Positions 26,039 through 57,653 of a stretch of DNA of 64,000 bases are shown in pieces. The notes beneath the pieces are model-generated. The model saw only the letters and a program-made list of their open reading frames with translations, ran no database searches and was not told where the DNA came from. The first letter of the stretch is position 1; each line of letters starts with the position of its first letter. The stretch is from a virus, in IMG/VR virus record IMGVR_UViG_3300024052_000085, positions 1 through 64,000 of that record; one strand, written 5' to 3'. Both the position numbers and the translations under genes were made by a program.

Positions 26039-26239
26039 ATGATTGAGTCAGTTATTAACGCTTTGGTTGCAGGTCTGATCGGCACGATTTCTTTTGTAGT
26101 TATCAAGAGTGTCGTTGCGGCTCAGAACACCACAGGTTGGTCTGCAGCTGAAATTGCCATCGTGACAATTATTCCTGTTGTTCTGGCGATCTTGGTCGTC
26201 GTCGGCATGTTTATGGGTCTCACGAAGCTTCGTTCCTAA
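26039..26239 (+). CDS. putative major capsid/coat protein 1 (66 aa, two hydrophobic helices, spindle-virus-like)
   Basis: Hydrophobic helix, QNTTGWS turn, hydrophobic helix with IP, basic tail; AAGGAGG RBS. Confidence 0.7.
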   Translation: MIESVINALVAGLIGTISFVVIKSVVAAQNTTGWSAAEIAIVTIIPVVLAILVVVGMFMGLTKLRS

Positions 26240-26287: not shown

Positions 26288-26488
26288 ATGATTGAGTCAG
26301 TTATTAATGCTCTAGTCGCAGGTTTGATTGGTACGATCTCCTTCGTTGTAATTAAGTCTGTTGTTGCAGCCCAGAACACTACAGGCTGGAGTGCAGCTGA
26401 GATTGCTATCGTAACTATTATCCCTGTTGTACTCGCGATTCTCGTAGTTGTGGGTATGTTTATGGGACTAACTAAGATGCGAGCTTAG
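26288..26488 (+). CDS. putative major capsid/coat protein 2 (64/66 aa identical to copy 1)
   Basis: Tandem paralog; AAGGAGGT RBS. Confidence 0.7.
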   Translation: MIESVINALVAGLIGTISFVVIKSVVAAQNTTGWSAAEIAIVTIIPVVLAILVVVGMFMGLTKMRA

Positions 26489-36965: not shown

Positions 36966-38287
36966 AAAAGAAAAATCTAGTAACTATAATATTAATAACA
37001 CTTACTACTCTTCTTTTAGGAGGTGTAGTTCAAGGGGATTCGGTACACGTAGGAGGAGCTGCATTAGTTCAGGGTATTGAAGTTCCTGCAGCCTCTGTTG
37101 CGGCTGTAGATGTTACTGTAGCTGTAAAAATTGATAGTGAATCCGAAATAGCTTCTGGTATAAGCGACGATGAAGTAGGAGATACTGGAGTTGCAACTGC
37201 TTTGATAACAATGCAATTGCATTCAGGAACTACTGATGTTCCTTTTATGCCTGGAACTAAGAATCAGCCAATACTTCAATATATAGATAAAGTGGGGACT
37301 AATGTTACCTCAGGTACTACTACACCTGCTTATAGTGGAGTAGGTGAAGATTTATTACCCTCTGCCCCTGCTGAAGAAGTATTTATGGCTATAGATCATA
37401 GAGCTCTTACTTTAGAAATGGATATGGGTCAAACTTCTTCAGGTACTTCAAGTGATTGGGAACTATACTATTTTAATCCTACAACCAATCTTTGGGTACT
37501 TTTTCCTGATGCTGAGGCACGTTTTACTACAACAGTAGGTCTTACAACTTTAAGTAGTACTACTGATCTACCTCTTGGGTGGACTAAAGGTACTCCGACA
37601 GACTTTGTAAGTATGACAGCTAATGCTTATTGGATTAAACTTAAACAAATAGCTGTAATAACTCCAAAGGTTCCGCAAGTAAAAACGATAGAATATAGAA
37701 CAGGAATCATGTTGTTTCATATGGATGAACATCAGATAAGCTTTGCGCAAGACTTCCTAGTCTATAAAGGAGGTACTACTACAATGAGAACGTTTAATAG
37801 TTATTTTCCAGGCTTTGATGGAATTACCCAAGCAGATCAGCCTTATCTAGAAATGAATTATGGAGCAACTACATCAGGATCTACTGATTGGGGTTTTGAA
37901 AGTTCTGTAGGCCTTAATTTAGACAAGAATGAATCGGGAAGTATATTTTCTAAATCAGGTTCTATGACTTTTAACTTTACTACAGCTGCTGCAGCTGGAG
38001 GTAATAACGCATTTACATTGTCTACGCCTGGATCTTCAAGCTACTACGGAGAATGGTCACATAATGAAAATGATGGTGGTGGTTATTATTCAGGAGCTGG
38101 AATAGAATCTCACTCAAAAGGATTTACTAATAAAGCAAGTAAATATAAAACAGCGAGAGAAGAAGATAATTCGGATAGCGTAACCTCAGATACCGGCGTA
38201 GTCGGAATAAGTAATTTAAAAGGAACAGATCCGGGGGGAACTGACACTACTCCCGTTTTTGGAGCGAAATTAAATGACCCTAGTTAA
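36962..38287 (+). CDS. signal-peptide, Ser/Thr/Gly-rich beta protein (virion surface)
   Basis: KKK plus hydrophobic signal; composition. Confidence 0.6.
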   Translation: MKKKNLVTIILITLTTLLLGGVVQGDSVHVGGAALVQGIEVPAASVAAVDVTVAVKIDSESEIASGISDDEVGDTGVATALITMQLHSGTTDVPFMPGTKNQPILQYIDKVGTNVTSGTTTPAYSGVGEDLLPSAPAEEVFMAIDHRALTLEMDMGQTSSGTSSDWELYYFNPTTNLWVLFPDAEARFTTTVGLTTLSSTTDLPLGWTKGTPTDFVSMTANAYWIKLKQIAVITPKVPQVKTIEYRTGIMLFHMDEHQISFAQDFLVYKGGTTTMRTFNSYFPGFDGITQADQPYLEMNYGATTSGSTDWGFESSVGLNLDKNESGSIFSKSGSMTFNFTTAAAAGGNNAFTLSTPGSSSYYGEWSHNENDGGGYYSGAGIESHSKGFTNKASKYKTAREEDNSDSVTSDTGVVGISNLKGTDPGGTDTTPVFGAKLNDPS

Positions 38288-44200: not shown

Positions 44201-45968
44201 TCCTACAGCTTCTGTAACTGGAGTCGAGTTTAGTCCAGACATGAATAAGATAGCTATAACTTGGGATACTTACCTATCGGTATACGAGTTTGATGATGCT
44301 ACAGGAACAATAGGTACTTTAGAAAGTGTTAGCTTAGCTAGTACTGCTACGGGATTAGACTGGCAAAATGAGAATACTACAGGTGTTACATCAATTGCTG
44401 CAAGTTCAACCTTAACACCTTTCATACATGCTTGGCCTTACAATACAAGTTTGAGTACCGGAGCTTTTGGGTCTAAATTAACAGACCCAAGTCCTTTACC
44501 TTCTGGAGCTGGTACTTTTGTAGGTATACATATAAATGATGATGTAGTAGTATTGGGTCAGAGTGTATCTCCTTACATAACTACCTATGAATATACGGGT
44601 ACTAGCGATGACGACTTTGCAATCAATAGATTGGTATTAAATTTCGATACTTCATACCTACCTGATGATGCTGTAATTACAGATGTTAAGCTTAACATAC
44701 CCCATGTTGCCTTAACCGCAGCTAATACATTACCCGGAACTACTCATTGGGACTTATATGTTCAAGAAGGATCTATTGCTGCTGAACCTATATCAGTTAC
44801 AGACTTTGACTTTAATAAATACGATCTACCAACATATCCAGTTATAGGATCTAAAAATAGTGCCGCAATGACAGGTTCTTCTTTTAGTATTAACTTAAGT
44901 GCATCTACTTTCATTAATAGTACTGGAATCTCTCAGTTAATATTAAGACATGAACATGAAGTGAGTTCGACTTCAACTCCTGCTGCACAGACAGATCAGT
45001 TTATAGAAATTAATTACGGAGGTCAGGAAGTAGGTAACGAATTCCCTACAGCTTGTACTTCAGATAGTACTTGGGGTACTATACAATCAGATAGTGCATA
45101 CAATATGTGTAATGCTACTAATGTACCTAAATTATTAATTACTTACACTTCTGTAAGTTCAGGTACTCCTGCAGACCTTGTAACTAATATAACGAGTATT
45201 GCTAACATACCAAAATCTGATGGAACTTATACTGTAGGAATACTTGCTAAAGGACCTGTAATAGTTTCTAAGGTTGAAGGTAATAGTACAAATACTACGG
45301 ATTACGGTTTCAATAGAGTTCAAGTAGATAATCTAAATAGTTGGAGTTTCCATACTTCAAGCGATCCTCAGAAACCTACCTCATTTGTTAACTACACTAG
45401 GATATATAGAAATCCTACAACCTATAATGCTATAAATCCCATTGTCGACTGGACTCTGACTGGTATACATAGCTTCCCCGAAAATTGGTTTTACGATTTA
45501 GGTACTGATGCTAATATCGATAACGCAGTTTATGAAATTGCAATTCCTTCAAGTTCAGTCTCACCAACGTTATCCAATAACGTAGGTATTGCAAGTGTAG
45601 CACCATTAAATGCTGCTTTACCTTCATATTCTCAGTTAGTAGGTATTTCAGATAATACTCCCGATCTTACTACCAGTTCATCTTCGGGAGTTGCAGGACT
45701 ACCTCTAGAACCCTTCTGGTTATATATAGAGTCTCAAACTGGAATGCCCGCAAAAGTAATGGTTTTGATGTTTGCATTATCATTCGTGATATTTGCAGGT
45801 GTTCTAGCCTTTAGATCATTCCAATCTGTAGCAGCATCTTTCATAGTAATGATTATAATGATAGCAGTATTTGCACTATCATTCGGAGGAGTATTCCCAT
45901 GGTGGATGCTAATAACATTTGCAATGACAGGTGGTATCTTCGTATTCGCTAGGAGAGCATACGTATAA
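38274..45968 (+). CDS. 2564-aa membrane-anchored adhesin/spike with DNRLRE-like repeats, an IPT-like domain and a beta-propeller
   Basis: Five R...FD(T/L)..(L/I)P motifs; TP...G..TLTLTG...C.T..A..G.WD..V.N; C-terminal TM bundle. Confidence 0.75.
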   Translation: MTLVKHADKSWILTWTLSLLTILGFIGLLVYSSLPTTVLASHDPTADPDDPHAAFRVVDVREAYGRLVLEVQHFKSNGDHWFYEVYTWEGTEEFNRLPAINPQGQLLLEDNSIAPYIANPEYNEVGILNLDEYRKDVPPEVQYIPIKKVEFEFQKVIEDVIPSDPGKDTYFQFLVTSGETIGWEQEQVLQKLGPPLSSSNNVVGDLAPVVGDTLTYIYSDGPELQYSNETALNKEAIIQQVASIHQVRTEKGWTGNKGRVLSPEVKSTPKSIEGAKLLSIRFAHLQGTTYFEDGTIFNGDTDLLAGIDDYFERVDLRTDRSKTYSIGEDLYRTELYQTAIHSENENGELLDISYDFIRVPDTDTWVMGTHPDYKVIADESTLTIIDPTDTYGGRWYTPAPLTFKDNTAYYYDDGLKWVYSLTPSGIKLDAEVHEPRGERDYEFTFLPLGEGIQPFRIDSDGNAVTADRAVSTTGGEIYFDFTLNENDYSIEPQLVVPRAFAEFGEDINKVRVSASPWEIVDDYTIKFTFDDKDITSYPYVLDPTTTISLVGNPLQNGMMFGTMYCNPITAGFYPNWTCGSVHGTGPEDYYIGKSSGSAYEAKRGMIKFDLNSLPAGIVITRAYIDMYNFTGGRNFDSTDYGDDRINFHRLRKEWDMNANWTKATNSVNWTGGGASQDCWHITANSNTGCDRDTEVSASLDAYSATSHPNDSNADCNCWHRWEGEKLLVDVRQMYSGMRPNYGWVIEHPQAENSAKLQGTWAYWYYGYYGYNQVVTLGLATYAPHMTVEYTFPSIDSCVTQTNWYTTNQGSSPAMWDGQIAHNNNHVAATFVTRTREPTTSNSGNANYDTDITDTHIKVGWYAKQGMTNVFWIQRGVVMYDTSNLPDDAIVVDAKWHFTISAKANQNTSVTAEYAYDGSVGSFNSLASQSINLVGLNYTDPDGLNPNSGLAGANRHDLTSMTTWNTNDYGVLKRSVEPMTVDMYIYDAKQNSQGNINNAGGGLYGQTHYVDSPYHHRDLTDFGMAYINKTGITKFAILHSDDRQGDPPIWYNDLWSYLNIASSEAGSQYEHKLEVTYRVPCAEVGTEATDTVTNTAVSTYYGTDANDDWSYQIGNYPAQGATRKWHGMWADSAHAMQNASILYLSFGQHSSGQTNWSTLAGDEYYFAFRSVVNFDTSNLPDYTQCTSATHTSYPAVDGEYQTYNSAGYEWYNMTNENRTTGSNTQTTDSTSTTMRVGFQMHSTQRKYTHQWRSELQFDTSGIPANAVITDATLRLKKANSPGVYSANSVVGMERSNTWGAGPNGTSLQEDDYDNMDFRAIAFGQPNDTAPGIKYFQINSLGLENSIKKGVGAITQLGLMDSRILNNKEIWNGSNSTATSWYTVENGNATTKPQLSVNYYVPCDNGIIDAWLDLGISGARLWSKNSPLGAHNWFGSGNAYTLNSLKPHPESDLTVVGVKVEAGHADNYGSAVASDFHKHTKGQITEEIPAVRMNWDDYTRFQFTDEGLYSVNTTGHTQIGLQLGNDYWDYEPVHNGGGWSYEIVLHSYTDATSRPKLTVVHGYQNQAAFYSNAIHNKVLTINTSGTTWVNPLTNTMKQDIINGITGHLSESTSWNTAVKANMSVGEVIRTDDDTVTITFGNHSTYAPSVAETMTILIPASATNDALASLPSRSTFQVDPVPFSFTAATPTMATNTGPLTLTLTGAGLPPGGSLPFQGSEDVRMQKSGEPDIVCSGVSGGGSSSVVSCPTTGAPVGAWDIKVINGAGLTGTLSANTTLYSPWSSTVNGGDFSPGGSDYGVFAHDAVPYFTVQAFDEVEKEWGVASSPPTSLPTTAGMDAEFNLTKTRIVVATSTTITPLYAYEFSPLTGVIGGTSSPASPTLMGTTSLDFGYADNVIGTTTTGGDYFYINDVDTSAAIASFWTSTLANTSTKPTATCNDIDVTVSYIAVGCDSAPYLFVYNFDNATPAIGTKLSDPANPPTASVTGVEFSPDMNKIAITWDTYLSVYEFDDATGTIGTLESVSLASTATGLDWQNENTTGVTSIAASSTLTPFIHAWPYNTSLSTGAFGSKLTDPSPLPSGAGTFVGIHINDDVVVLGQSVSPYITTYEYTGTSDDDFAINRLVLNFDTSYLPDDAVITDVKLNIPHVALTAANTLPGTTHWDLYVQEGSIAAEPISVTDFDFNKYDLPTYPVIGSKNSAAMTGSSFSINLSASTFINSTGISQLILRHEHEVSSTSTPAAQTDQFIEINYGGQEVGNEFPTACTSDSTWGTIQSDSAYNMCNATNVPKLLITYTSVSSGTPADLVTNITSIANIPKSDGTYTVGILAKGPVIVSKVEGNSTNTTDYGFNRVQVDNLNSWSFHTSSDPQKPTSFVNYTRIYRNPTTYNAINPIVDWTLTGIHSFPENWFYDLGTDANIDNAVYEIAIPSSSVSPTLSNNVGIASVAPLNAALPSYSQLVGISDNTPDLTTSSSSGVAGLPLEPFWLYIESQTGMPAKVMVLMFALSFVIFAGVLAFRSFQSVAASFIVMIIMIAVFALSFGGVFPWWMLITFAMTGGIFVFARRAYV

Positions 45969-46052
45969 TGGCAGAGTGGAATAGAGAATATTTTGATGGG
46001 AGAGCATACGTATAATGGCAGATAGAGAATGTTTTGATTGGAATAGAGAATA
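45952..46052 (+). repeat. mosaic tandem duplication (24-bp GGAGAGCATACGTATAATGGCAGA at 45952 and 45999)
   Basis: Exact copies, plus repeated TGGAATAGAGAATA and ATAGAGAATRTTTTGAT. Confidence 0.85.
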
Positions 46053-46563
46053 CTATGGTAAAACCCATCCACATAAAAAGTTCTATAACATTCCAGATGT
46101 AGAAGGAACTAAACATTTAGATATAGGGTGGAGCGAAGGAGATTTCCCAATAATTGGAGCTACTCTGGGAGTAGATCCTGGTAGTAATCGAAAATTTTGG
46201 AACTTTGAACACTCTCCAGAAGAGGATAAAGAAGTAACAGACTTTTATAGAAGTATAAACTTCGAAGAAATAGCTGCTAGTGGGACACATCTACCTTTTG
46301 CAAATGGAACTATAGACTCTGTATCATCTCAGCATTCAATGGGAATGGAATTCGATTTAGAAGAGGGATTAGCAGAAGCTATCAGAGTACTTAGGAGCGG
46401 AGGTAAGTTAGCAGTTTTAACATGGGTTACTACTGAAGAAATTGAAGAGTTAAGAAGATGGTTGAGAAGTCAACCTGTACAAAATGTTAGAATAAGAAAA
46501 AGAGATAAAGATGAAGACACTGATAATTTATTTCTTTACGGAATAGAGTTCACTAAGGTATAA
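46015..46563 (+). CDS. class I SAM-dependent methyltransferase-like, paralog 2
   Basis: LDIG, ASGTHLPF..GTIDSV, EAIRVLRSGG. Confidence 0.75.
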   Translation: MADRECFDWNREYYGKTHPHKKFYNIPDVEGTKHLDIGWSEGDFPIIGATLGVDPGSNRKFWNFEHSPEEDKEVTDFYRSINFEEIAASGTHLPFANGTIDSVSSQHSMGMEFDLEEGLAEAIRVLRSGGKLAVLTWVTTEEIEELRRWLRSQPVQNVRIRKRDKDEDTDNLFLYGIEFTKV

Positions 46564-46566
46564 TAA

Positions 46567-47370
46567 ATGAATAAATTAATGGCATTCTTCGTATTCACAT
46601 TCATATGTGGGTCAATGATCAGTTTTACAATGGAAGGGGGTTCTGGTATAGTAACAACTCATCTAAAAGACACTATTACCGCTTCACAGAATGTTATACC
46701 TGTAAATAGTATTGTAGGCTTTTTAACTGGAGGTGATAGGATAACAATCGAAGATGAAGATATTAGATATAATAGCGTACAAGCTGCAGGAATAATAACT
46801 TCTGTAGATCCGGGAGCTGATGGATTATACGACTCTAGCACCTTGGGTGCTGCTATAAATAATGATAACGTTTGTGAAGATGGATCTATATGGTTAGCCA
46901 GTAGAACCTTAATAACTAATGCATGCGTAGGAGCTGTAACAGGAGAGATAGCTTATACATGCCCTTGTATGGTCCTAACAAATAGTAATACGGTTCCAAT
47001 AATGAGAGGAGCTGATTCTTATGATAGTGAAGAGACTGAAGCTAAACCTCATGCAGGGCCAGATAACTCAAAAGTACCCCCAAGAAGAGGTACTAAAGTC
47101 TTTAACAGAGGGTCTTCATTAGTAAATCAGGCTTTAGGAATGAACATAGCTCAAAGTGCGACAACAGCAGGTGTTGCCAAAACATTTGTTCTATTGCCTA
47201 TAGCATTGAGTAAGACAGCAATAAAACTAGTAGCTTGGGACTTCGCATATCTAGAAGGAAACTTTTCATACTTTAAGTATATGATCTTGTATCCTATATC
47301 TGCAGGATTCATGTATACCATACTAATAACCGGTGCAAGTCTATTCCAGGGAGTCTTTAGAAGAGGATAA
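46567..47370 (+). CDS. membrane-anchored structural protein
   Basis: N-terminal and C-terminal TM; T.L...I......IPV.S..GF....I.IE.E.I.Y pattern typical of virion beta domains. Confidence 0.6.
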   Translation: MNKLMAFFVFTFICGSMISFTMEGGSGIVTTHLKDTITASQNVIPVNSIVGFLTGGDRITIEDEDIRYNSVQAAGIITSVDPGADGLYDSSTLGAAINNDNVCEDGSIWLASRTLITNACVGAVTGEIAYTCPCMVLTNSNTVPIMRGADSYDSEETEAKPHAGPDNSKVPPRRGTKVFNRGSSLVNQALGMNIAQSATTAGVAKTFVLLPIALSKTAIKLVAWDFAYLEGNFSYFKYMILYPISAGFMYTILITGASLFQGVFRRG

Positions 47371-47823: not shown

Positions 47824-48012
47824 ATGATATCCGAAACTGAAAAGTGCGTACATCATTGGATAATAGAAACTTCTACAGGTCCTACAAGTCAAGGTGAATG
47901 TCAGAAGTGTAATGCAAAGAAACTCTTCTCTAACTCTATAGGTATGAAAGAGATGCCTAGAAGTATTAACCTAGCTAGCCCTAATTCTTTAAATGGACGT
48001 TTCAATAACTAA
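47824..48012 (+). CDS. small Zn-ribbon protein (CxHHWxIE..GPTS.G.CxxC)
   Basis: Motif seen directly. Confidence 0.6.
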   Translation: MISETEKCVHHWIIETSTGPTSQGECQKCNAKKLFSNSIGMKEMPRSINLASPNSLNGRFNN

Positions 48013-48911
48013 TGAGTATGAAATCTGAATACGGAGGTATTTTCGGAGTAATCAATCCTAGAGAACTTAATCGTCTCTATGAGTTACTGGATGTTTGCGG
48101 ATCTATGGGATGGAAGATTGAAGAAGATCTTAGTATAGAAGACGAAACTGATAGAAGATGGGATTATAATAGAAGATTAGAAGCAGGAAATCCTCAGTAT
48201 CAATATGGTGGAGGACAATTTAGAGATCTAGCTCCTTTCGATTATTTAGAACTAGAGTATGATGGTAACTTTCAATTAATGACAGTACCAGCTTTTAATA
48301 CTTGGTTGAAGCAAGCGCGTAACTATGCCGCTAGATGGTTTAAACGTCTCCAGTCTAGATATGCTCAGAAGATACAGTTAGCAGATACAAAAGGAAAAGT
48401 AAGAATGGCTGACTATAATAGAATGGAAATGTTGGAACATCATATCAAAGCAGTTAAGGATAAAGATGAAGCATATATAGAAAGAAGTGTACCTATGTAT
48501 GATTCTAGTATAGAACCAGAAAGATATGCAGAATTCGAAAAGTATAAAGATCTTTATGACTGGAAAAAAGATATAGACTGGGTACTTGGTCCTCAAGGAC
48601 TATTACATACTGAAGATTCGGAAATAGAGATTGCTAGACAGAGTTGGATAGAAGGATTTAAGGAAATTTCAAAGTGTCTTCAAGATCTTACTAAAATTCA
48701 AAAGAATGTAGCTAGAAGATATAATCGTTGGTCTAGAAAAGATTTCAGATATACTGAAGATCCTACAGATCCCGACACTCCAGGGAAATTTTTTAACCCC
48801 GACTTTAGATATAATGTTTCCAGACGTCAGAGAGGCCTAACAGACAAAGAAGGTAAATACTTACATGACTGGAATCCAGATACAATGGAAAGCGGAGCGC
48901 AAGGATTATGA
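48012..48911 (+). CDS. hypothetical protein, (Y/F)GG N-terminal family member 1
   Basis: SEYGGIFGVINPRE. Confidence 0.55.
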   Translation: MSMKSEYGGIFGVINPRELNRLYELLDVCGSMGWKIEEDLSIEDETDRRWDYNRRLEAGNPQYQYGGGQFRDLAPFDYLELEYDGNFQLMTVPAFNTWLKQARNYAARWFKRLQSRYAQKIQLADTKGKVRMADYNRMEMLEHHIKAVKDKDEAYIERSVPMYDSSIEPERYAEFEKYKDLYDWKKDIDWVLGPQGLLHTEDSEIEIARQSWIEGFKEISKCLQDLTKIQKNVARRYNRWSRKDFRYTEDPTDPDTPGKFFNPDFRYNVSRRQRGLTDKEGKYLHDWNPDTMESGAQGL

Positions 48912-49738
48912 TTTCAATAATCATACCAGCATATAAAGAGTACGATAACTTAGTTACTCTTATTCCTGAAATACGTAAAACCCTTAATGGCGATCTACAT
49001 GAAATAATTGTTGTAGATGACGATAGTAGGGATGGTACAGAAGGATTAGAGAATGCTAAGGTAATTGTTCGTAAGAACGAAAGAGGACTGTCGAGTGCTG
49101 TAATTAGAGGCATTAGAGAGTGTGAAACAGATGCTTTTGTAGTTATGGATGGAGATCATCAACATCCCCCTTCAGTCCTTCCTTCTCTAACTAGAGCATT
49201 AGACAATCATAATTTGGTTGTAGGCTCTAGATATGTTGAAGACGGAGGAACTTCTGGTTGGACTCTAACGAGAAAGATAGTAAGTAGAATAGCTAGTTTA
49301 ATGGGAAGACCTTTATGCGGTATTAGAGATTCTAGTTCAGGAATTTTTGGAACTTATAAATCGTTATTAAATATAGATAATCTTAACCCTATAGGATTTA
49401 AAATAGGTTTAGATATATACAACAAGTTACGCTATGAAAGTAAAACTGAAATACCTTATATATTCAGTTCACGTAAACATGGAGATTCTAAATTCACTTC
49501 TAAACAGGTTAAGGAGTATCTAAAGCAACTATTTAACTTATACATAGATTTCTTTAACCCTCGACAGTTAGGGAAGTATTGCTTGGTAGGTTCTCTTGGT
49601 GTAATTATCAACTTTGGTATTTTAATTGGATTAACAGAAGCCTTTGGATTTCATTATATAGTATCTGAAATGTTTGCTATAGGCTTAGTACTTATATCGA
49701 ACTTCATCTTAAATAAACATTGGACGTTTAAAGTATAA
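48908..49738 (+). CDS. GT2 polyprenol-phosphate mannosyltransferase (DPM1/Ppm1-like) fused to a GtrA-like domain
   Basis: SIIIPAY.E, VDDDS.DGT, RGLSSAV, MDGDHQHPP, VVGSRYV.GG, GFKI, G.SK; C-terminal TM pair ending NFILNKHWTF. Confidence 0.9.
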   Translation: MISIIIPAYKEYDNLVTLIPEIRKTLNGDLHEIIVVDDDSRDGTEGLENAKVIVRKNERGLSSAVIRGIRECETDAFVVMDGDHQHPPSVLPSLTRALDNHNLVVGSRYVEDGGTSGWTLTRKIVSRIASLMGRPLCGIRDSSSGIFGTYKSLLNIDNLNPIGFKIGLDIYNKLRYESKTEIPYIFSSRKHGDSKFTSKQVKEYLKQLFNLYIDFFNPRQLGKYCLVGSLGVIINFGILIGLTEAFGFHYIVSEMFAIGLVLISNFILNKHWTFKV

Positions 49739-50181
49739 TGGTAGGTAGAGATGCCTTCGGAGGTTTGTTTTCTGTTCTGACAAGATCAGAAGCTAGTTGG
49801 CTAGAAGATTACATTCGAGAGAATGCTGCTGAAGTATATGAGGATTATGAGGGACTAGCAAGTATGACTCTTAAAGACGTAATCCTGATGTTAAGCTTGG
49901 AAAATGAACAATTAGCTTACTCCATGAATGATAAAGAATGGAGAGAACAGTGGGATAACGAGAGTCTAGGGCCTTTAGGTTCTGAAAACGTAGTTAAACC
50001 TTTTAGAGATAGAATAGCTGCATTTAGAGCTATGCTTATCGAAGGAATGAGGATTCAGAAAAAGCTTGAAGCATACGCTAAGAAACATGAAATAAGCTAT
50101 AAGAAGATTAACTATAAACATTGGGGTCCTAAAGCTGATATGGATTATAATCCCAGAAACTTTACAGAGGTGAACTTTTAA
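49738..50181 (+). CDS. hypothetical protein, (Y/F)GG family member 2
   Basis: MVGRDAFGGLFSVLTRSE. Confidence 0.55.
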   Translation: MVGRDAFGGLFSVLTRSEASWLEDYIRENAAEVYEDYEGLASMTLKDVILMLSLENEQLAYSMNDKEWREQWDNESLGPLGSENVVKPFRDRIAAFRAMLIEGMRIQKKLEAYAKKHEISYKKINYKHWGPKADMDYNPRNFTEVNF

Positions 50182-50184
50182 ATT

Positions 50185-50616
50185 ATGGTAGGTAGAGATG
50201 TATACGGAGGATTCTATTCTCCTCTCAGTGGAAGAGATATTGCAGATATAAACAGTGTCCTAGAGACTACTGACTTCTATGCTTTTCTAGAACCCAGATT
50301 CCAAAAATTAGCAACACCGAGAGATATTAGGGGAATACCTAAAAATGTTCTTCTCGAGAACCTAGAAGTGTTTGAAAGGTCTAATAACCGTATGCTAAGA
50401 AAACATTCTAGAGAGACTGCTGAGCAATTTAGAGGAGAAAAAGATTACCCTTATTTAATGAGTCCAGAAGATGTAGGTCACTTTAAAAGACAAGGACTTA
50501 TAATTCGAAGAGCCATTGATAAACTAAAGGCCGATCAAAGAAGAGAGGGCTGGAGTAGTTATAAAGGTAATCCTAAATGGTTAGAACTTATGGAAGATCC
50601 TGGAACTGAAATATAA
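50185..50616 (+). CDS. hypothetical protein, (Y/F)GG family member 3
   Basis: MVGRDVYGGFYSPLSGRD. Confidence 0.55.
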   Translation: MVGRDVYGGFYSPLSGRDIADINSVLETTDFYAFLEPRFQKLATPRDIRGIPKNVLLENLEVFERSNNRMLRKHSRETAEQFRGEKDYPYLMSPEDVGHFKRQGLIIRRAIDKLKADQRREGWSSYKGNPKWLELMEDPGTEI

Positions 50617-50638
50617 TAACTGTAAAGGAATAGTATAT

Positions 50639-50833
50639 ATGCAAATTGGAGACACATATAGAGACAACAACCAAACTTACATTTGGTCTAAATGTCCTAT
50701 GTGCTTTTCTGAAAGAGGAGTAAGAAAACGTAGCTATATCCAAATTCCCCAATCTTTATGTCCTGACTGTAATTATATTAAGAGTAAGAGGGAGATGACT
50801 GGTTTGTGGGACTTTAAGAAGGCTCAAATATGA
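50639..50833 (+). CDS. C4 Zn-finger protein, paralog 2
   Basis: WSKCPMC..ER...SLCPDCN. Confidence 0.65.
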   Translation: MQIGDTYRDNNQTYIWSKCPMCFSERGVRKRSYIQIPQSLCPDCNYIKSKREMTGLWDFKKAQI

Positions 50834-51006
50834 AAGTAGGCGAGACATGGAAAGACGAAAGAGGTACTTGGTTTTGGGTAAGATGCCCTAATTGTAATGA
50901 GGAAAGAGAAGCTAGAAGAGCTTCAAAATATACTCCTGCTCTAAGGCTTTGTAAACCCTGCAATAAGAAAAGAGCTACTCAGTGGATGTCAGGACTAGTT
51001 TTATAA
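50830..51006 (+). CDS. C4 Zn-finger protein, paralog 3 (58 aa, not in the ORF track)
   Basis: MKVGETWKDERGTWFWVRCPNCNEER...RLCKPCN; ATGA/TAATG coupling at both ends. Confidence 0.7.
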   Translation: MKVGETWKDERGTWFWVRCPNCNEEREARRASKYTPALRLCKPCNKKRATQWMSGLVL

Positions 51007-51203
51007 TGCAATTTAACAAAGAATACGAGAATATAGAAGGCGTAAATTATTTACTTAAGCATAGACGTAGTTTAAGAATGTGGGATCTAGGAACTTTACG
51101 AAGTGTTGCTTCTGCTTTCGACTTAAATGTTAAAGGTAGCAGAACTGTATTAATTGCAAGGCTAGAAAGAGTATATCAAGACTTAAAGAATAGAGGGTTC
51201 TAA
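51006..51203 (+). CDS. SAP/HeH-like DNA-binding protein
   Basis: L...LR.....DL.V.G.R..LIARL; start moved to the TAATG-coupled ATG. Confidence 0.5.
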   Translation: MQFNKEYENIEGVNYLLKHRRSLRMWDLGTLRSVASAFDLNVKGSRTVLIARLERVYQDLKNRGF

Positions 51204-51204
51204 A

Positions 51205-51390
51205 ATGTACACTAAAAGAGAATGTGAATACGGTCCTGGAGAGTGGCCTCGCGAGTGTGGTACATGTAGTCACTATTCAGGTACACCAAATGCAGAAGTT
51301 ATAGATGCTACTTGCAGAATATTGGTACCTGAAGAAAATAACGTAGAAGAAGAGATGGTCTGTAAATTTCATGTAATGGTAAAAAGATAA
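51205..51390 (+). CDS. small 4-Cys protein, HiPIP-like spacing
   Basis: Y...CGTC.HY...C.I....V....VC. Confidence 0.4.
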   Translation: MYTKRECEYGPGEWPRECGTCSHYSGTPNAEVIDATCRILVPEENNVEEEMVCKFHVMVKR

Positions 51391-51391
51391 T

Positions 51392-51772
51392 TTGGGTAAT
51401 CAATCTAAATCTCTTCAAGGAAGAGTAAGTAAACAAAGATACAAAGAACGAAAGTTAGAAGTATACAGTTTACTAGGAGGAAGGTGTGCCGAATGTCACG
51501 AGACAGATGATAGGGTTCTCCAAATTGACCATAGATATTCGGACGGTAATAAAGAAAGAAAATTTACTAGATCTCAACTGTACGCAAGGGTAAGAAAGAA
51601 CACTAACAGATATCAGTTACTATGCGCTAATTGCAATTGGAGAAAGAGAACTAAAGATATGGTAGTACAATCAAGAGATAATGTCTGGTGGAGAACTAAA
51701 AGTAAAATAGCTACATCGATTATACTAACAAGCTTTATAACAGCTTTAGGAGCGTACGTATATTATGACTAG
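51392..51772 (+). CDS. HNH-type nuclease domain with C-terminal TM
   Basis: GG.CAEC, LQIDH, LLCANCN. Confidence 0.7.
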   Translation: MGNQSKSLQGRVSKQRYKERKLEVYSLLGGRCAECHETDDRVLQIDHRYSDGNKERKFTRSQLYARVRKNTNRYQLLCANCNWRKRTKDMVVQSRDNVWWRTKSKIATSIILTSFITALGAYVYYD

Positions 51773-52722
51773 TCCAAGTGGATACATTTGGTGCCCCCTA
51801 TGTAAAGCAATGAGACCTGGAGGTCTTGCCGGACATCCTACAGATACTGAAGGTAGATTGATAAATGCAGTAGTTCTACATAAAGACGTAGAACGTTCTA
51901 CAGGCAATCCTTTTAAAGGAATAGATTTAGATCCTCAAGAAGCTTATAGAGCTAGTACCCGTCAGAAAGGACGTTGGGTTGAGGGAGGTCCTGAAGCTGA
52001 TCCCAAGATGTCTATAGGTCAATTAATAGATGTTATGGCTTGGAATCTTTATACTACAGCAGCAGCTTATAAGTCTAAACATCCGGGATCTACTATGGAT
52101 CAGATTGCTTCAGGGATGAACTTAGATCACTTCTGGGAGCTAGCACAAGAATCTAGAGATTCAGGTTTCTTAGATGAACAATACTCTAATGCATGGATAT
52201 ATGAAAATATAATCCTACAACCTAATACCTGGAATAGAGTAATAAGAGATCTCGAAGGTTATCAAGCTACCAACCGTAACCGTGTATGGGATAACTCTTA
52301 TCTGAGTCCAGAACCAGGTTCTCGATCACGCCTACCTAAATCTGGAGGAGAAAAACGAAAGACATTCTACAGGAGACTATATCCTTCTATCAGAGGAGAG
52401 TCGACTGCAGGACCAGACGATCCAGGCAAGACTTCAGAATTCGGATTTTAGATAATGCCTAATAAACGTTACATTCTAACAGTTAAGTTTCCTACAAAGG
52501 ATCCTAGTCCTCCAGAGATGCAGGAGTTCTATGAAAACCTTTCAGATACTCTAAATGATAAATGGTACTATCAAGAGTATGGTGTTGCAGGTAAAAACAA
52601 AGGCTTTAGAAGAATTGGATTTCTTAATCTGACTCCTCTACAATTAAAAACAGTCAAGAAGAAAGCTAGAGAGTACCTTTCTAAAGTAACATTCTCTAAA
52701 AGCGTAAGTACAGAGAGGTCTG

Positions 52723-53292
52723 ATGGCTAAGAAAAGACGAAGGCTAAATCTAGATATAGGCTATGCTGATGGTGAACCTGTAAGAGGAACTACTATAGGA
52801 CTAGATCCTTATCCACATTATCCTGAATCGGATTATCTGAAAGATCCAGAATTCATAGTACCTGATATACAAATTAAAGGAGAGGGTGAATCTCTTCCTT
52901 TTAAAACTGGTTCTTTAGATCGTACAACTTCTTTTTTCCCTGACGGAATAATGGCATTTCCTAATGAAGGATATGCTCAATTCAAGTCAAGAAAAATGTA
53001 TCCTTATCCTGAAGATTTTGATCCTGAAGAACATTGGATAGCTCTTATAGAGAGTCTTAGAGTATTAAGACCTGGAGGAACTACTAGACATGTTTGGGAT
53101 AATGAAATGGAAATCCCAACACCTTTACAAGTACGAAAGGATCCTTACTATCTAGCTCTGATACAGCTTCTTAAAAACCATGACATGGAAAATATTAAGA
53201 TTGAGATAGAAGACAACGGTCTCCAAGGATGGGAAGATGGAGTACCTCAATATCATTATGCATTCATATTGACTGCTAGGAAGAAAAAATAA
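52723..53292 (+). CDS. class I SAM-dependent methyltransferase-like, paralog 3
   Basis: LDIG, GEGESLPF..GSLD, ESLRVLRPGG. Confidence 0.7.
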   Translation: MAKKRRRLNLDIGYADGEPVRGTTIGLDPYPHYPESDYLKDPEFIVPDIQIKGEGESLPFKTGSLDRTTSFFPDGIMAFPNEGYAQFKSRKMYPYPEDFDPEEHWIALIESLRVLRPGGTTRHVWDNEMEIPTPLQVRKDPYYLALIQLLKNHDMENIKIEIEDNGLQGWEDGVPQYHYAFILTARKKK

Positions 53293-53303
53293 AGGAGAAA
53301 TAG

Positions 53304-54716
53304 ATGGTACAAGTTTTACAAAGGCCTTGGGTTATTCCCTTAGCAATATTTATTATTGCTTCGGGATATTTCCTTTCTATGGCCGCAACGTTTCCTACAT
53401 TTTTTAACGCAAATTCGGATTCAGCATTATTCTTAATAGCAGCTAAATTCCTTAGAATAGGACATCCTAGCCCTGGCTATCCTTTATATACTTTAATAAA
53501 CGCAGGCTGGTTATATATAACTCCTTTCTGGAGCGAGGTATTCTCTCTTACATTCCTTAACGTAATATTCTCTGGTGCAGTTGCTGGTATACTCTACTTA
53601 ATAACTCGTACAGTGATGGCACCTCTACTTTGGATGTCTGCAGGTATAGTAGTAAGTCAATCTACCATCTTAGAGCAATATTCTTTGATGATTCTTTTTA
53701 TGGTAGTCTCTTATTACTTCTATCGTCAAGATAAACGTTCCTTAGCTTATGCAATTGCAAGCTTTGGAATTATGGTAAACCATCAAGCAGGCTTTTGTAT
53801 CATAGCTTACCTAGCTAACGATATATATCGCCATAATTCATTAAAACCTTTCTTGTGGTCTTTTATATCTCTTCCATTATTAGCTTATATACCTTTAGCT
53901 AACAGACCACCTTTTCTAATGATAGATGGAGACAGTCCAAGGAACTACATTAATTACTTCCTAGGTCAAAGAGGCCTCATAATGGGTCTATCTATAATTC
54001 CTACAGACGATCTAATAACCAGATCTTGGGAAACAGTCAGACTCGTATTAGGTGGATTAGGCATATCTGTAATACTTATATTCTTTGCGATTAAGAATAC
54101 AATCAAAGATAGTATAGTCTTACCTATAATGTTCTTTCTACCTCTATTATATTACTTCGGTATGTTAAGCTCTTGGGCCTATACATATACATTGCCTATT
54201 ATAGCATTCGGAATAATTCTAGCTTGTCAATACGAGTGGAAGTTTATTAGAAACGCTTGTATAGCAGGTTCTATAGTCCTTATAGCTATGAATTTCATGT
54301 GGTATGACTTCGGAAGAACATTAGATGAAGAAAGAACCAACGTACAATTCTTAGAGACATTAGAAGAACTTCCATCAGACGCTGTAGTAATAAGTAATAA
54401 AGGATTTCTAACTCCTTTATGGATAATGTTACATAATCTAGAAAACGATACAGAAATTAAAAATCTCAGTTGGGATCTCTTAGGAGAGTATGCTACCAAT
54501 ACTAAAGATTGGAATCCTGATTTAGATGTTCTTGTTAATGCTGAAGAGGATGGAAGATTATATGAGTATTCTTTGATAGATGCAAAGACTTTAGAAGTAC
54601 AACTTAAACAGTTAGATAAGGACGATAAAGAATATACTGATTTTATTAAGTGGTTAGAAAGTCCAATAACTGCAAGATTAGACTGTAAGCTTAGAGAGAG
54701 GCAATGGACATGTTAA
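53304..54716 (+). CDS. multi-TM GT-C glycosyltransferase, DUF2723/TMEM260-like protein O-mannosyltransferase
   Basis: DS..F..AA..L.I.HP.PGYPLY after TM1, SQS...E.Y; many TM helices. Confidence 0.75.
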   Translation: MVQVLQRPWVIPLAIFIIASGYFLSMAATFPTFFNANSDSALFLIAAKFLRIGHPSPGYPLYTLINAGWLYITPFWSEVFSLTFLNVIFSGAVAGILYLITRTVMAPLLWMSAGIVVSQSTILEQYSLMILFMVVSYYFYRQDKRSLAYAIASFGIMVNHQAGFCIIAYLANDIYRHNSLKPFLWSFISLPLLAYIPLANRPPFLMIDGDSPRNYINYFLGQRGLIMGLSIIPTDDLITRSWETVRLVLGGLGISVILIFFAIKNTIKDSIVLPIMFFLPLLYYFGMLSSWAYTYTLPIIAFGIILACQYEWKFIRNACIAGSIVLIAMNFMWYDFGRTLDEERTNVQFLETLEELPSDAVVISNKGFLTPLWIMLHNLENDTEIKNLSWDLLGEYATNTKDWNPDLDVLVNAEEDGRLYEYSLIDAKTLEVQLKQLDKDDKEYTDFIKWLESPITARLDCKLRERQWTC

Positions 54717-55015
54717 CCAAAATCATTCAGGGAGCTTCAGTACTACTAATTCCTGTATGGATCCTACTAGCATATTTGTCAGTACCTTTAGTGACAGGAG
54801 TTGAAATAGTATACCCGCTTAGAGGAGTAATTCTGTCAGGGAAGAATGCTTTATTCTTTTTCAACATTATAGCTGTAGCTGCTATGGGAGGTTATTTAGC
54901 TAGTAAGTTTAGGAATAACAAACCAGTATATATTGCTATACAAACTACAACATTTATTCTGGTAATTCTAATAGCTTGGATAACTTCGAAGATTCAGCAT
55001 TCTTATACAATATAA
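54704..55015 (+). CDS. three-TM membrane protein
   Basis: Hydrophobicity; coupled to the GT-C gene. Confidence 0.6.
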   Translation: MDMLTKIIQGASVLLIPVWILLAYLSVPLVTGVEIVYPLRGVILSGKNALFFFNIIAVAAMGGYLASKFRNNKPVYIAIQTTTFILVILIAWITSKIQHSYTI

Positions 55016-55183
55016 TATGGGTAAGAAAAGAAGACTATTCAAGATCAGGTTTAAAGTAAATGGCAAAGCTAAGACATATAGAACGATGGCTAAGTCTAGT
55101 CATGATGCTGCAAAGAGAATGAAAAGTATAGGTCAAATAATTAGTATAACTCAGGAACATTAGCTCACACCACACCATATATA

Positions 55184-55208
55184 GCATCAGATCAAATTAG
55201 AGTAAAAT
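55184..55208 (+). promoter_or_regulatory. virus-specific promoter motif, copy 4
   Basis: GCATCAGATCAAATTAGAGTAAAAT, intergenic. Confidence 0.7.
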
Positions 55209-55239
55209 ATCCATATAGAAGTACAAAAAGAGGTTTCGT

Positions 55240-57273
55240 ATGGCAGCTACCGTACATAATTATGAAGCAGGCGACGTGGTATCTATTACGTCCCAAAAAG
55301 GTTTCTATACAGAAGAGTTCGGTGAGATAAATAGAAGTAAGCCCGGAGGTCCCGGATTACTGCGTCTAAATCCTGGAATTGAGACGAAGTATTCTATTTG
55401 CTTTATTGATGCAGACGGTGATGGTAATGTAGACACTACCGAATGTATTTGGATTCCTATTCCTAACACTATAGGTGTTATGGCAGTTCATGGTTATGGA
55501 TTAAACTTTCCTATTCCTCCTACTGACGAAGGCGTAAACCTACTTCGTAGTGCATTTAGGAAAGTAAGGGGAGCTGCTGCTAATGTTCTTGAACTAGGTA
55601 GTCCGAGTCCTCGGGAAAATAGAGAGCAAAGAGACGCTCCTTCAGACGATAAGAGGATGTATATAACTGACGAGGGAATGCAAGCCTTCGACGATGTATA
55701 TACTAGAGAACAAGAAAGAGTACAACAACTAAAAGGTCCTGAAGCTCTTTCAGAAGCAAAGAAGATACGTCAAGATCGTGCAGATATCCTTTCATTCATT
55801 AATGAGAAGAGATCAGATAAAGAAATTCATGCTAGATTTGGTGACTCAGAATTCCATCGCATGAAAGCCGAAGGGCATTATTCATATAATGAAGAAGACT
55901 GGCATTTTTATGAATCAGAAGAATCTGAAGAAACAGTAGCAGACTCTTCAGGTCAAGATCTGTATAATCTAGAAGGTCCCGAAAGTGTATTTGAAGCTGG
56001 CAAAGAAACTTCAGAAACAAGACCAGATCAAGATACTGATTTAGTAGTATCAGAACCAGAAGTATCTACTGAAGTATCAGACTCTCCAGGTCCCAAAGCT
56101 TCCAGAAATGGTAAACGTGCTTTGGGTAATATAGCTAACTTAGGTAGATCATTTGCTATTGGAAAATTAGCCCAGACAGATATAGGACAGAAGCTTGGTG
56201 TAGAAGCAAGAACACATAGAATGCTTGCACATATTCCAATTGAGACAGCTGTTGTATTCTTATCAGATATGCCAGAGCTTGGAGTTGAAAAGAATGATAA
56301 GGGTACAGTTAAATTAGGTCCTAGAGGAAGAGAAAAGGTTGTTTACTTTGGTGAAGGTGAATACGTTATACCAAAGCAAAATACTATTCTTGGTTTAGCA
56401 ACCTCTGCTCCTACTCAAGCAACTTCAGTTACAGCTATTACAGGTAAGTGGGGAGCTACTTCAACTACACCATCTAGTGTTCTTTCTTCTATAGATCCTT
56501 TTACAGGTAGAAGTTCAAGAAGTTCAATAGACTTTAATGACGGTTTACCTCCAGGTTTTAATGCTGAACACTATGCAAGTTTATCTCGTACGGCACGAAA
56601 TCAATACTTAAGATCTTTTAAAAGTATTGATATAGGATATATAGGTACTGCAAAAGAGCGTAACACAAGACCTAGCATTGAAAGAAAAATACAAGCCAGA
56701 CTTAGAAAAGAAAACCAACATATTCAAAGTCAAAGCGAATCAGAAGAAAGAAGGAAGAATAAAGCACCCAGACCCCCCAGCGCAACTACTATAAGAGAAT
56801 CGATGGTTAAAGTTGTCTTTGACGAAGAAACAGATCGCTGGGTAGCTCTAATACAAATACCTTCTGACAGAGTTCCTTCTACTGCAGTAGCTCCTGGAGG
56901 TATAGATCTGGAAACTTCTAGATGGAAACCTATTTCAACCTCTGAGAGAAATAAAATACAAAATGTTATAGAGGAATGGAAACGTCTTAATCCGAGTAAA
57001 ATTCCAAACTACGAAATACGCGATAAACTAAAGATAGGTACTCAAGACAGTGCTATTCGAGATATCTATAGCGGAAATATAGGAATGGATAGAAGCGATA
57101 TTGATGACGTAGCAAATTTTGTTGATGACGGTATGATTAATTTCGTTCAACAACATGCTACAGGACAACCAGGCTATACAAGCGAAGACATGTCTAAAAT
57201 TAATTTAGGTAGAGGTTTTGAAATCAATCCACAAAACTTAGAACACGATTATAGTTTTGACGATGAAGAATAA
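55240..57273 (+). CDS. large hypothetical protein (677 aa)
   Basis: Long ORF downstream of promoter motif copy 4. Confidence 0.7.
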   Translation: MAATVHNYEAGDVVSITSQKGFYTEEFGEINRSKPGGPGLLRLNPGIETKYSICFIDADGDGNVDTTECIWIPIPNTIGVMAVHGYGLNFPIPPTDEGVNLLRSAFRKVRGAAANVLELGSPSPRENREQRDAPSDDKRMYITDEGMQAFDDVYTREQERVQQLKGPEALSEAKKIRQDRADILSFINEKRSDKEIHARFGDSEFHRMKAEGHYSYNEEDWHFYESEESEETVADSSGQDLYNLEGPESVFEAGKETSETRPDQDTDLVVSEPEVSTEVSDSPGPKASRNGKRALGNIANLGRSFAIGKLAQTDIGQKLGVEARTHRMLAHIPIETAVVFLSDMPELGVEKNDKGTVKLGPRGREKVVYFGEGEYVIPKQNTILGLATSAPTQATSVTAITGKWGATSTTPSSVLSSIDPFTGRSSRSSIDFNDGLPPGFNAEHYASLSRTARNQYLRSFKSIDIGYIGTAKERNTRPSIERKIQARLRKENQHIQSQSESEERRKNKAPRPPSATTIRESMVKVVFDEETDRWVALIQIPSDRVPSTAVAPGGIDLETSRWKPISTSERNKIQNVIEEWKRLNPSKIPNYEIRDKLKIGTQDSAIRDIYSGNIGMDRSDIDDVANFVDDGMINFVQQHATGQPGYTSEDMSKINLGRGFEINPQNLEHDYSFDDEE

Positions 57274-57653
57274 TGGTTATTAAAGTTAGATTAGGTAAAA
57301 CTGTACGTCCTTGGGGAACTTTCTATGATTTAGAAAGAGAAGAGGGTTATCTAGTAAAGAAACTACACTTACGTCCCGAATCTCGTACTAGTCTACAATA
57401 TCATACAGAAAGAGAAGAAGTATGGGTTGTAGTAAGTGGCCATGGTAACGCTTGGCACCAAAGTATGTTTGATACTAACGATCCTGTATGTGAAACCATA
57501 GGTGTTGGCGATACTCTTAGAGTTGGAATAGGAGAACCTCATAGAATAGAAAATACTTCTACATCTGAAGATTTAGTTATAGTAGAAGTTCAACTTGGTG
57601 AAATTTGCGATGAAGAAGATATAGTTAGAATAGCTGATGATTACGGAAGATAA
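57273..57653 (+). CDS. mannose-6-phosphate isomerase type II-like cupin (ManC C-terminal domain)
   Basis: RPWG, VKKL...P..R.SLQYH..R.E.W.VV.G, HRIEN, EVQ.G..EEDIVR..DDYGR. Confidence 0.9.
   Translation: MVIKVRLGKTVRPWGTFYDLEREEGYLVKKLHLRPESRTSLQYHTEREEVWVVVSGHGNAWHQSMFDTNDPVCETIGVGDTLRVGIGEPHRIENTSTSEDLVIVEVQLGEICDEEDIVRIADDYGR

Follow-up and report, generated by a model that had tools for sequence, protein, structure and literature searches.

Which sugar would a marine virus load onto a membrane lipid, and to which acceptor would it pass that sugar? The question is raised by a group of plus-strand genes in the 64,000-nucleotide stretch analysed here (the window), which comprises bases 1-64000 of the linear virus record IMGVR_UViG_3300024052_000085 (78,758 bases in total, of marine source and 36% GC). 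The genes encode a family 2 glycosyltransferase (GT2) of the dolichyl-phosphate-mannose-synthase (DPMS) type (48908-49738), a membrane glycosyltransferase of the GT-C fold (53304-54716), a small three-helix membrane protein (54704-55015) and a cupin of the phosphomannose isomerase (PMI) type (57273-57653). A first-pass annotation had seen in three of them the logic of polyprenol-phosphate-mannose-dependent glycosylation, and that logic holds: an isomerase stands in one genome with a GT2 that has all the named residues of the Pyrococcus furiosus DPMS (PfDPMS) and with a GT-C of the type of TMEM260 and the protein O-mannosyltransferases (PMTs). We consider it highly probable that these genes make up a lipid-linked hexose pathway with a GT-C end step, and fairly likely that the transferred sugar is mannose. 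Our reading as a whole, a self-contained lipid-linked mannosylation module whose acceptors are most likely the virus's own virion proteins, we put at an even chance.

Two glycosyltransferases and a small membrane partner

The GT2 (276 aa) reads as a polyprenyl- or dolichyl-phosphate mannose synthase with a catalytic domain, interface helices and one transmembrane (TM) hairpin, as judged from Pfam, PDB and residue conservation. It matches Pfam Glycos_transf_2 (E 4.6e-25), and its top PDB match is PfDPMS (5mlz; E 1.4e-54, residues 2-275), with the next-best matches far weaker (ArnC ~7e-9, GtrB 1e-4). Thermococcales homologues align along its whole length at ~42% identity. Its DXD motif takes the form DGD, whereas that of DPMS enzymes is typically DAD. 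When 8 viral-type sequences are aligned with 7 cellular ones, E11, D38, G60, L61, D81, D83, H86, R108, R122, S126, K165 and R189 are invariant. In the accessible text of PMC5526996, PfDPMS contacts guanine through D39 and ribose through Y10, binds metal and diphosphate through D91 and Q93, contacts the mannose hydroxyls with D89, H94, R117 and K178 and the dolichyl phosphate (Dol-P) with S135, R117 and R131, and is gated by E12, F177, R202 and K208. All residues in that list, and also G68/L69, are matched in the viral GT2 by the 5mlz alignment, in which chain numbering is the numbering of the paper plus 22. Thus the donor, metal and Dol-P residues are kept, as are both interface helices.

The membrane part of the enzyme is shorter than that of its cellular relatives. 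The first-pass annotation had described a DPM1-like GT2 fused to a GtrA-like domain; the GT2 part stands, and the GtrA-like part proved to be half a domain, with the Pfam GtrA_DPMS_TM match (E 3.8e-11) covering profile positions 1-53 of 117 only. All 8 viral-type sequences, one of them from a 32%-identical locus, end directly after TM helix 2 (TMH2), whereas the 7 cellular ones run ~60-75 residues beyond that end; cellular homologues (~350-370 aa and ~40% identical; from Thermococcus, Pyrococcus, Pacearchaeota, Nanoarchaeia and one Omnitrophica) have a second hairpin there. For the type-III DPMS, PMC12992685 (accessible part) proposes that a four-helix GtrA-like domain may flip dolichyl-phosphate mannose (Dol-P-Man), naming N248, N277 and, on TMH4, R341 and F338; of these, N248 and N277 in the first TM domain (TMD1) are retained in the viral GT2, and R341 and F338 are gone with the second (TMD2). 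As far as that text goes, type-III DPMS, strictly defined, is reported from hyperthermophilic archaea only, whereas the viral GT2 is encoded by a 36% GC marine virus. Judged by its sequence, the viral GT2 is an enzyme of the DPMS type in which half of the membrane domain is left, TMD1 being kept and TMD2 missing.

The GT-C (470 aa) is assigned by profile and model to the TMEM260-like proteins (PF11028, formerly DUF2723), as a form without tetratricopeptide repeats (TPR) and with an alpha/beta C-terminal domain (~340-470) that would be extracytoplasmic. A phmmer search of the PDB with the single sequence returned only TMEM260 (9rql, E 0.0082), the human Dol-P-Man-dependent O-mannosyltransferase of IPT domains (9RQL/9RQM/9RQN). 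Searched exhaustively with HMMER, 1.84 billion representatives yielded 146 relatives, 63 of them at E<=1e-10, and a profile built from 60 homologues matched TMEM260 as the sole solved structure (9rql, E 4e-21) over profile positions 14-325, the whole membrane core, with the second PDB match at E 0.034. PF11028 was found in 45 of the 60 aligned homologues (PMT_2 in 8, GT87 in 3 and EpsG in 3) and is the precomputed annotation on 8 of 14 close ones. D39 and P60 are invariant in the 60 sequences, R240 is nearly so, and H54 is at least 90% conserved in an alignment of 19. In the 60-homologue profile alignment D39 and H54 fall on D52 and H67 of TMEM260, whose mutation abolishes activity, as stated in the accessible part of 10.64898/2026.03.17.711096. 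The same text names R264/Y267 in the donor-lid loop and R355 in TMH10; the viral stretch opposite R264/Y267 (218-225, FLGQRGL) has R223, in a low-confidence loop (predicted local distance difference test score, pLDDT, below 50 at 223-230) and in an uncertain register.

The AlphaFold model of the GT-C (pLDDT 89.3, predicted template modelling score 0.90) has the GT-C fold. In a Foldseek search with this model the top rows were all GT-C enzymes or complexes containing one (ALG12, ALG9, ArnT, STT3/PglB/AglB, DPY19). A structure search against 48,161 chains gave as its best row yeast Pmt1-Pmt2 (6p2r_B; Z 25.7, root-mean-square deviation (rmsd) 4.0, 332 residues aligned), followed by Pmt4 (9e61_A; Z 24.1, rmsd 4.0, 326 aligned), ArnT (Z 23.3), STT3B (22.3) and ALG12 (21.6), with GT-C proteins throughout the best 20 rows (to Z 11.2). 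TMEM260 itself was not among the rows returned by either structure search, and with P0156 as a bridge sequence the alignment to TMEM260 reached residue 240 only. Unlike the yeast enzymes of family GT39, the viral protein has no MIR domain, and its identity to them is 11-12%. It shares with TMEM260 the GT-C fold, the Asp and His just named and, in the model, a non-TM alpha/beta domain after the last helix, on the outer side; it differs in length (470 aa against 707) and in having no TPR 'fingers', since neither Pfam at E<=10 nor the model, with ~130 residues after the last TM helix, gave a TPR domain. This C-terminal domain had only weak periplasmic-binding or Rossmann-like matches (Z ~4). Together, the family profile and the fold bear out the DUF2723-like assignment of the first-pass annotation. 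It had also considered a grouping with polysaccharide-modifying enzymes; TMEM260 is the sole solved structure with which the GT-C groups in sequence, and its closest matches in fold are Pmt1-Pmt2 and Pmt4.

Four of the GT-C homologues (P0073, P0076, P0110 and P0125; 709-958 aa) carry inteins (Intein_splicing or PT-HINT, E 1e-13 to 1e-19) in the region of about residues 320-380; these four proteins are encoded outside the window. An intein within a polytopic glycosyltransferase is unusual; inteins usually sit in core genes.

A third component, overlooked in the first-pass annotation, is the 103-aa protein with three TM helices encoded at 54704-55015, whose gene overlaps the GT-C stop codon and which synteny and a predicted complex mark as a probable GT-C subunit. 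Its conserved features are a PLxTGxE loop after TM1 (G32 and E34 at least 90% conserved) and a GGY motif in TM2, and Pfam and PDB profile searches gave no known family for it. We followed the gene through 21 related loci (20 from metagenome contigs, one from a genome collection), which were gathered by peptide pattern and narrow GT-C alignments, a search that is not a measure of absence; likewise, a narrow-alignment peptide-pattern search of viral contigs, which yielded zero loci, does not measure absence. A homologue lies directly 3' of the GT-C gene in 17 of the 21 loci (tblastn). Two of the remaining four stop within the GT-C gene, L020 (GT-C identity 27%) has in this position a 113-aa three-TM open reading frame (ORF) that aligns weakly, and L021 has none. 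Five loci (L008, L010, L011, L012 and L014) contain tandem GT-C copies, and a separate small gene comes after each copy that is complete; this count leaves out second copies cut off by the contig end. No PF04138 match was found at E<=1 in any of 17 homologues, nor any PDB relative, so the small protein was rejected as a GtrA.

When the GT-C and the small protein were predicted as a complex, the interaction score ipSAE, which expresses the confidence of the model, was 0.81, against 0.00 for the best of three controls. Of solved complexes 116 of 157 reach that mark, and of mismatched pairs 2 of 215, counts that apply approximately here, as our own alignments were used. At least 68% of the contacts were shared between runs, and the partner had a pLDDT of at least 70. 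On the side of the small protein the predicted contacts involve residues 8-37, with TM1 and the conserved loop, and they join these to GT-C residues 33-36, which adjoin D39, to 112-118, which adjoin an invariant SQS motif, and to 243-257, 314-334 and parts of the C-terminal domain. The small protein is thus predicted to bind the GT-C beside its active-site loop. No such dedicated three-TM partner is mentioned for TMEM260 in the accessible text of 10.64898/2026.03.17.711096. A hidden Markov model of the small gene found nothing at E<=1 within ~1.5 kb of 11 Chloroflexota GT-C homologues, and the protein therefore seems specific to the viral clade.

Linkage of the cassette and the PMI-type cupin

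The arrangement of the cassette is retained over deep divergence. In L016, L018, L019 and L023, whose GT-C proteins are 32-34% identical to that of the window, the GT2, GT-C and small genes are contiguous in that order. Of the 21 loci, 8 contain a GT2 homologue; every locus that extends more than 5 kb 5' of the GT-C is among them, and the others have too little upstream sequence to judge. In the window, in L004 and L013 and in the distant L018, the cassette directly follows genes whose products are exported or anchored in the membrane, and the order of a 368-aa protein homologue, a giant-protein homologue, GT2, GT-C and small protein is found in L018, L013 and L004. The cassette is kept from 96% to 32% identity in one virus lineage.

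In the window, ~3.5 kb of small genes, an endonuclease-VII-like gene among them, lie between GT2 and GT-C, and this stretch varies between relatives. Homing-type endonucleases (Endonuclease VII-like, HNH, LAGLIDADG) occur in or beside the cassette at 51392-51772 in the window, at L018:7552-8184 and at L020:1510-2250, and may have pushed GT2 and GT-C apart in the window. The 189-aa gene just 5' of the GT-C (52723-53292) has a 63% identical homologue just 3' of GT2 in L013 (6192-6788), which shows a faint Methyltransf_11 match (E 1.6e-5); it is possibly a further travelling member of the cassette.

Downstream, the 126-aa protein at 57273-57653 is a stand-alone cupin of the type II PMI kind, as the first-pass annotation had proposed. 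It matches MannoseP_isomer (PF01050) with E 1.9e-18 and 67.2 bits (cutoff 23.6), and NCBIfam GMP_PMI with E 1.5e-18 over positions 358-467 of 467; at this length and with this coverage, there is no fused N-terminal mannose-1-phosphate guanylyltransferase domain. Among 16 sequences R12, P13, W14 and G15 (RPWG), H44, R47, E49, H90 and R91 are invariant and Q42 is at least 90% conserved; we take the RPWG, Q-x-H, E and H-R residues to be those of the metal and active site. The closest viral clade has Glu for the second His of HxHRSEHW and a short clade-specific insertion. The family consists of stand-alone 'PMI type II C-terminal cupin' proteins, a form common in bacteria, and its named members are bacterial. 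All four close-clade loci with enough downstream sequence (L003, L008, L013 and L014) contain the cupin. The cupin gene lies 2.5 kb from the GT-C in the window, and always follows the gene for a 677-aa soluble protein (55240-57273, plus strand; no Pfam or NCBIfam family, no TM helix). Homologues of this gene hold the same position in L003, L004, L008, L013 and L014, and its membership of the module is uncertain.

The proposed pathway, its acceptor and its sugar

From the gene identities, conservation, fold, synteny, co-duplication and predicted complex described above, we infer a pathway including its sugar, a flipping step, a GT-C heterodimer in vivo and an acceptor. The cupin, as an isomerase, would drive fructose-6-phosphate towards mannose-6-phosphate, from which host enzymes would make GDP-mannose, because neither a phosphomannomutase nor a guanylyltransferase was found in the 78.8-kb record. 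The truncated GT2 would then transfer mannose from GDP-mannose to a polyprenyl phosphate (dolichyl or undecaprenyl) at the cytoplasmic face. The lipid-linked mannose would be flipped, with the single GtrA-like hairpin acting as a dimer, a host flippase or the small protein as candidate agents, and the two-subunit GT-C, composed of the TMEM260-like chain and its 103-aa partner, would pass the sugar on to an outer-face acceptor. In the GT-C fold the first-loop Asp faces outside, whereas a GT2 active site faces the cytoplasm, which suggests that the sugar is loaded inside, flipped and transferred outside. The first-loop Asp of TMEM260 likewise lies on the outer side (10.64898/2026.03.17.711096, accessible part). 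Mannose is the likely sugar because the residues that read guanine and mannose are conserved and because the GT-C has affinity to TMEM260 and the PMTs.

The likeliest acceptors would be Ser and Thr residues of exported and anchored virion proteins that await assembly in the host membrane, among them the coat-protein turn and the giant proteins. We favour viral exported proteins because the cassette is conserved throughout the lineage beside structural genes, because Pfam scans of 79 larger ORFs spread over the record contained no integrase, recombinase or other lysogeny families, and because four GT-C homologues carry inteins. A further reason is that coat hairpins and tail proteins of spindle viruses are glycosylated on outward turns, according to the accessible parts of PMC9351363 and PMC10866085. 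We rate a viral protein as acceptor somewhat below an even chance. One candidate is a pair of tandem plus-strand genes (26039-26239 and 26288-26488), each for a 66-aa hairpin coat protein. The two copies are nearly identical and both read AAQNTTGWS between their helices, so that the NTT seen in the first-pass annotation is present in both. Four further candidates lie just upstream of GT2, all on the plus strand and characterized by a hydropathy and composition script: a 368-aa protein with a signal peptide and three C-terminal TM helices (35859), a 441-aa protein with a signal peptide and 22% Ser plus Thr (S+T; 36962), a 2564-aa protein with an N-terminal signal or anchor, three C-terminal TM helices and 35 N-X-S/T motifs (38274), and a 267-aa protein with a signal peptide (46567). 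A methyltransferase gene (46015-46563, plus strand) lies amid this span of exported proteins (35859-47370).

The strongest Ser/Thr tract of the window lies elsewhere, at residues ~1951-2060 of a 2203-aa protein (26581-33192), where the sequence is of low complexity, with up to 60% S+T per 50-aa window. This protein has no signal peptide and no TM helix and is probably cytoplasmic or internal.

Several findings weigh against our main reading. The 2564-aa protein had been described as an adhesin with an IPT-like domain and long Ser/Thr-rich stretches. We detected no TIG/IPT or Ig-type Pfam match in the whole protein at E<=0.01 or in 16 overlapping 300-aa pieces at E<=1, and no PDB sequence match at E<=1, although these sequence searches leave room for an Ig-like fold; the Ser/Thr claim was overstated, as S+T make up 20% of the protein and a level of 36% is reached in no more than three windows of 50 aa. 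The viral GT-C also lacks the TPR domain, which in TMEM260 is both required and enough for recruitment of the IPT peptide, as given in the accessible part of 10.64898/2026.03.17.711096. With neither a TPR domain nor a detected IPT domain, the earlier step from TMEM260 specificity to the adhesin as substrate fails. The coat turn, in the only relative found (L024, 85% identity, with the same tandem pair), reads QSTALWS, so that the N-X-T sequon is lost and Thr and Ser are kept; the L024 record is a 17%-complete fragment without GT-C and has no bearing either way on co-occurrence with the cassette. As to the GT-C, Pfam gave zero matches to the sequence itself even at E<=10, PMT_2 included, and the protein is a member of the TMEM260-like family by profile, a profile-dependent link, and not by a curated single-sequence threshold. 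The profile alignment ends at TMEM260 chain residue 382, short of the catalytic base D441, which the same TMEM260 study (accessible part) places in a luminal Rossmann-like domain, and neither the 60- nor the 19-sequence alignment has an invariant acidic residue in the viral C-terminal domain. ArnT lies within ~2.5 Z units of the PMTs, and the PMT_2 clan includes modifiers of lipid A and glycans as well, so the fold leaves protein and glycan acceptors undecided. The cupin is absent from the distant L015, L019 and L023, each with at least 3 kb downstream, and is thus not obligatory. Finally, a GT2, a small membrane protein and a GT-C are also the architecture of phage gtrABC, which modifies host O-antigen.

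This last point leads to the strongest alternative, which we hold to be possible and less probable than a viral acceptor. The same lipid-linked pathway might modify a host envelope component (an S-layer or other surface protein, lipopolysaccharide, teichoic acid or another glycan), and the altered surface would block superinfection or the re-adsorption of released virions, as surface alteration is the role of gtrABC in temperate tailed phages. In both systems a GT2 makes a polyprenol-phosphate-hexose inside, a small membrane protein is present and a GT-C transfers outside. The tandem, diversified pairs of GT-C and small gene in five loci recall the diversification of serotype-converting GtrC, ArnT as a lipid A modifier is a near-equal structural match (Z 23.3), the GT-C has neither TPR nor another recognisable protein-binding domain, and receptor masking would profit viruses that are released chronically without lysis. 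However, the parts differ: the viral GT2 is of the DPMS type (1.4e-54) and not of the GtrB type (1e-4), the small protein does not resemble GtrA, a GtrA-like segment exists solely as a half-domain in the GT2 protein and not as a separate gene, and the sequence affinity of the GT-C is to TMEM260 (45/60) and PMT_2 (8/60), not to GtrC-type families. The setting differs as well, since gtrABC serves lysogenic conversion in tailed phages, whereas the viral module stands beside structural genes in a non-tailed lineage, and the Pfam scans of the record found no integrase. Conversion modules are sporadic, unlike a cassette that is conserved with structural genes from 96% to 32% identity, and the inteins in four GT-C homologues are usually a core-gene trait.

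Spindle viruses of the Sulfolobales offer a comparison for virion glycosylation. YNP2 and SMV2 encode the best isolated-virus matches of the GT2 (~35% identity, E 6e-26 and 4e-23), and these viruses have hairpin coat proteins and glycosylated virion proteins (PMC9351363, PMC10866085). Unlike the window, their genomes gave no GT-C match, and such of their virion glycans as have been studied are N-linked and ascribed mainly to the machinery of the host, as far as the accessible parts of these two sources go.

A second alternative, which we regard as improbable, concerns the small protein, which would be a flippase for the lipid-linked sugar, in function an analogue of GtrA, or a replacement for the missing TM hairpin of GT2. 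The third member of all known three-component systems is a small multi-TM protein. The GT2 lacks TMD2, the half of the GtrA-like domain for which a part in flipping Dol-P-Man is proposed (PMC12992685, accessible part). However, the small gene tracks the GT-C and not GT2, being 5 kb from GT2 in the window and co-duplicated with the GT-C, its predicted interface is with the GT-C, and PF04138 similarity is missing in all 17 members. We thus prefer the small protein as a GT-C subunit. Least likely of all, and in our view improbable to a still greater degree, is a hexose other than mannose (such as glucose, as for GtrB or AglK-type enzymes) with the cupin as an unrelated metabolic or sugar-modifying neighbour: PfDPMS keeps about a quarter of its activity with GDP-glucose and residual activity with UDP-Glc (PMC5526996, accessible text), so that mannose is not proven, the GT2 motif is DGD, and the cupin, with its altered His and insertion, lies 2.5 kb off behind an unrelated gene and is missing from three distant loci, but the guanine (D39) and mannose-hydroxyl (D89, H94, R117 and K178) residues are all conserved, the nearest families of both membrane enzymes use Dol-P-Man, and the cupin keeps Q42, H44, E49 and H90 and co-occurs in four of four close-clade loci.

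Both cells and gtrABC phages are well known to use lipid-linked glycosylation with three components, and spindle-type virions that carry glycans have been described too. The mannosylation module is a variant of this scheme, with DPMS-type and TMEM260-type parts in a non-tailed virus. In the literature searched, we found no description of a DPMS-type synthase, a TMEM260/PMT-type GT-C and a private small subunit in one virus. A bolder version, in which this is the first protein O-mannosylation system from a virus of prokaryotes, the new subunit takes over the acceptor handling of the TPR domain, and mannose coats the capsid hairpin and giant proteins before these leave the host membrane, is tentative and in our view rather doubtful. 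If viral O-mannosylation were true, it would for the first time offer a functional way into the large DUF2723 family of bacteria, which is uncharacterised. With ~850 residues in three chains conserved over deep divergence, the module is compact and an attractive minimal system for the acceptor choice of the GT-C, for whether half a GtrA domain suffices in handling a lipid-linked sugar and for the role of prokaryotic DUF2723 proteins. It also bears on how a hydrophobic capsid could be made compatible with water in non-tailed viruses that assemble in a membrane.

Distribution, host clues and genome context

The GT-C gave no match in a tblastn search of 50,697 GenBank phage records, and its closer homologues that were looked up all lie on contigs of 27 kb or less. 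Its language-model (Atlas) neighbours are bacterial TMEM260-like clusters, mostly of Chloroflexota, the nearest of 477-509 aa, and 53 of 201 sampled Chloroflexota genomes contain a homologue (E<=1e-8); the best E is 1e-43, and a single genome can have as many as 8 copies. A viral-type cassette (GT-C score 2e-152) is present on a 7-kb contig binned with an Anaerolineales genome. In four Chloroflexota loci (L029, L030, L031 and L032) the TMEM260-like gene is preceded by one that encodes a protein of 167-202 aa, hydrophobic in a segment near its N-terminus; this protein is a possible conserved neighbour or acceptor in bacteria.

Several clues point to a bacterial host, namely a sigma-70 region-4 protein, a PolA that resembles those of bacterial phages (25-28% identity), Shine-Dalgarno-like motifs before 68 of 106 genes, the named relatives of the cupin, the Atlas neighbours of the GT-C and the cassette on the Anaerolineales-binned contig, whereas the named relatives of GT2, mostly archaeal, point the opposite way. 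No tRNA genes were found in the virus sequence. We lean, without confidence, towards a bacterial host.

The plus strand carries nearly all genes of the record as far as ~74.7 kb. The Pfam scans found no tailed-phage head, tail or terminase families. They matched a PolA fused with a domain like uracil-DNA glycosylase, AAA_24, DUF669, genes of a 7-deazaguanine pathway (QueC, QueE-like, FolE and PTPS), a Zot/FtsK-type ATPase, an SNF2 helicase and a dUTPase. Three ORFs flanking GT2 (48012-48911, 49738-50181 and 50185-50616) have similar N-termini (M..GG.F/Y..) and look like one small family in a variable stretch; the 299-aa member is not at this position in the close relative L004.

Beyond the window, the record encodes an FkbM-family methyltransferase at 65163-66077 (L002:2164-3078; PF05050, E 1.3e-20). 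Methyltransferases of this family often methylate sugars, and this one might decorate the same glycan. At the right end of the record lies the gene for the sigma-70 region-4 domain protein (L002:11742-12203, minus strand; E 2e-7), and a dual-specificity phosphatase domain protein is encoded on the minus strand within the last ~4 kb.

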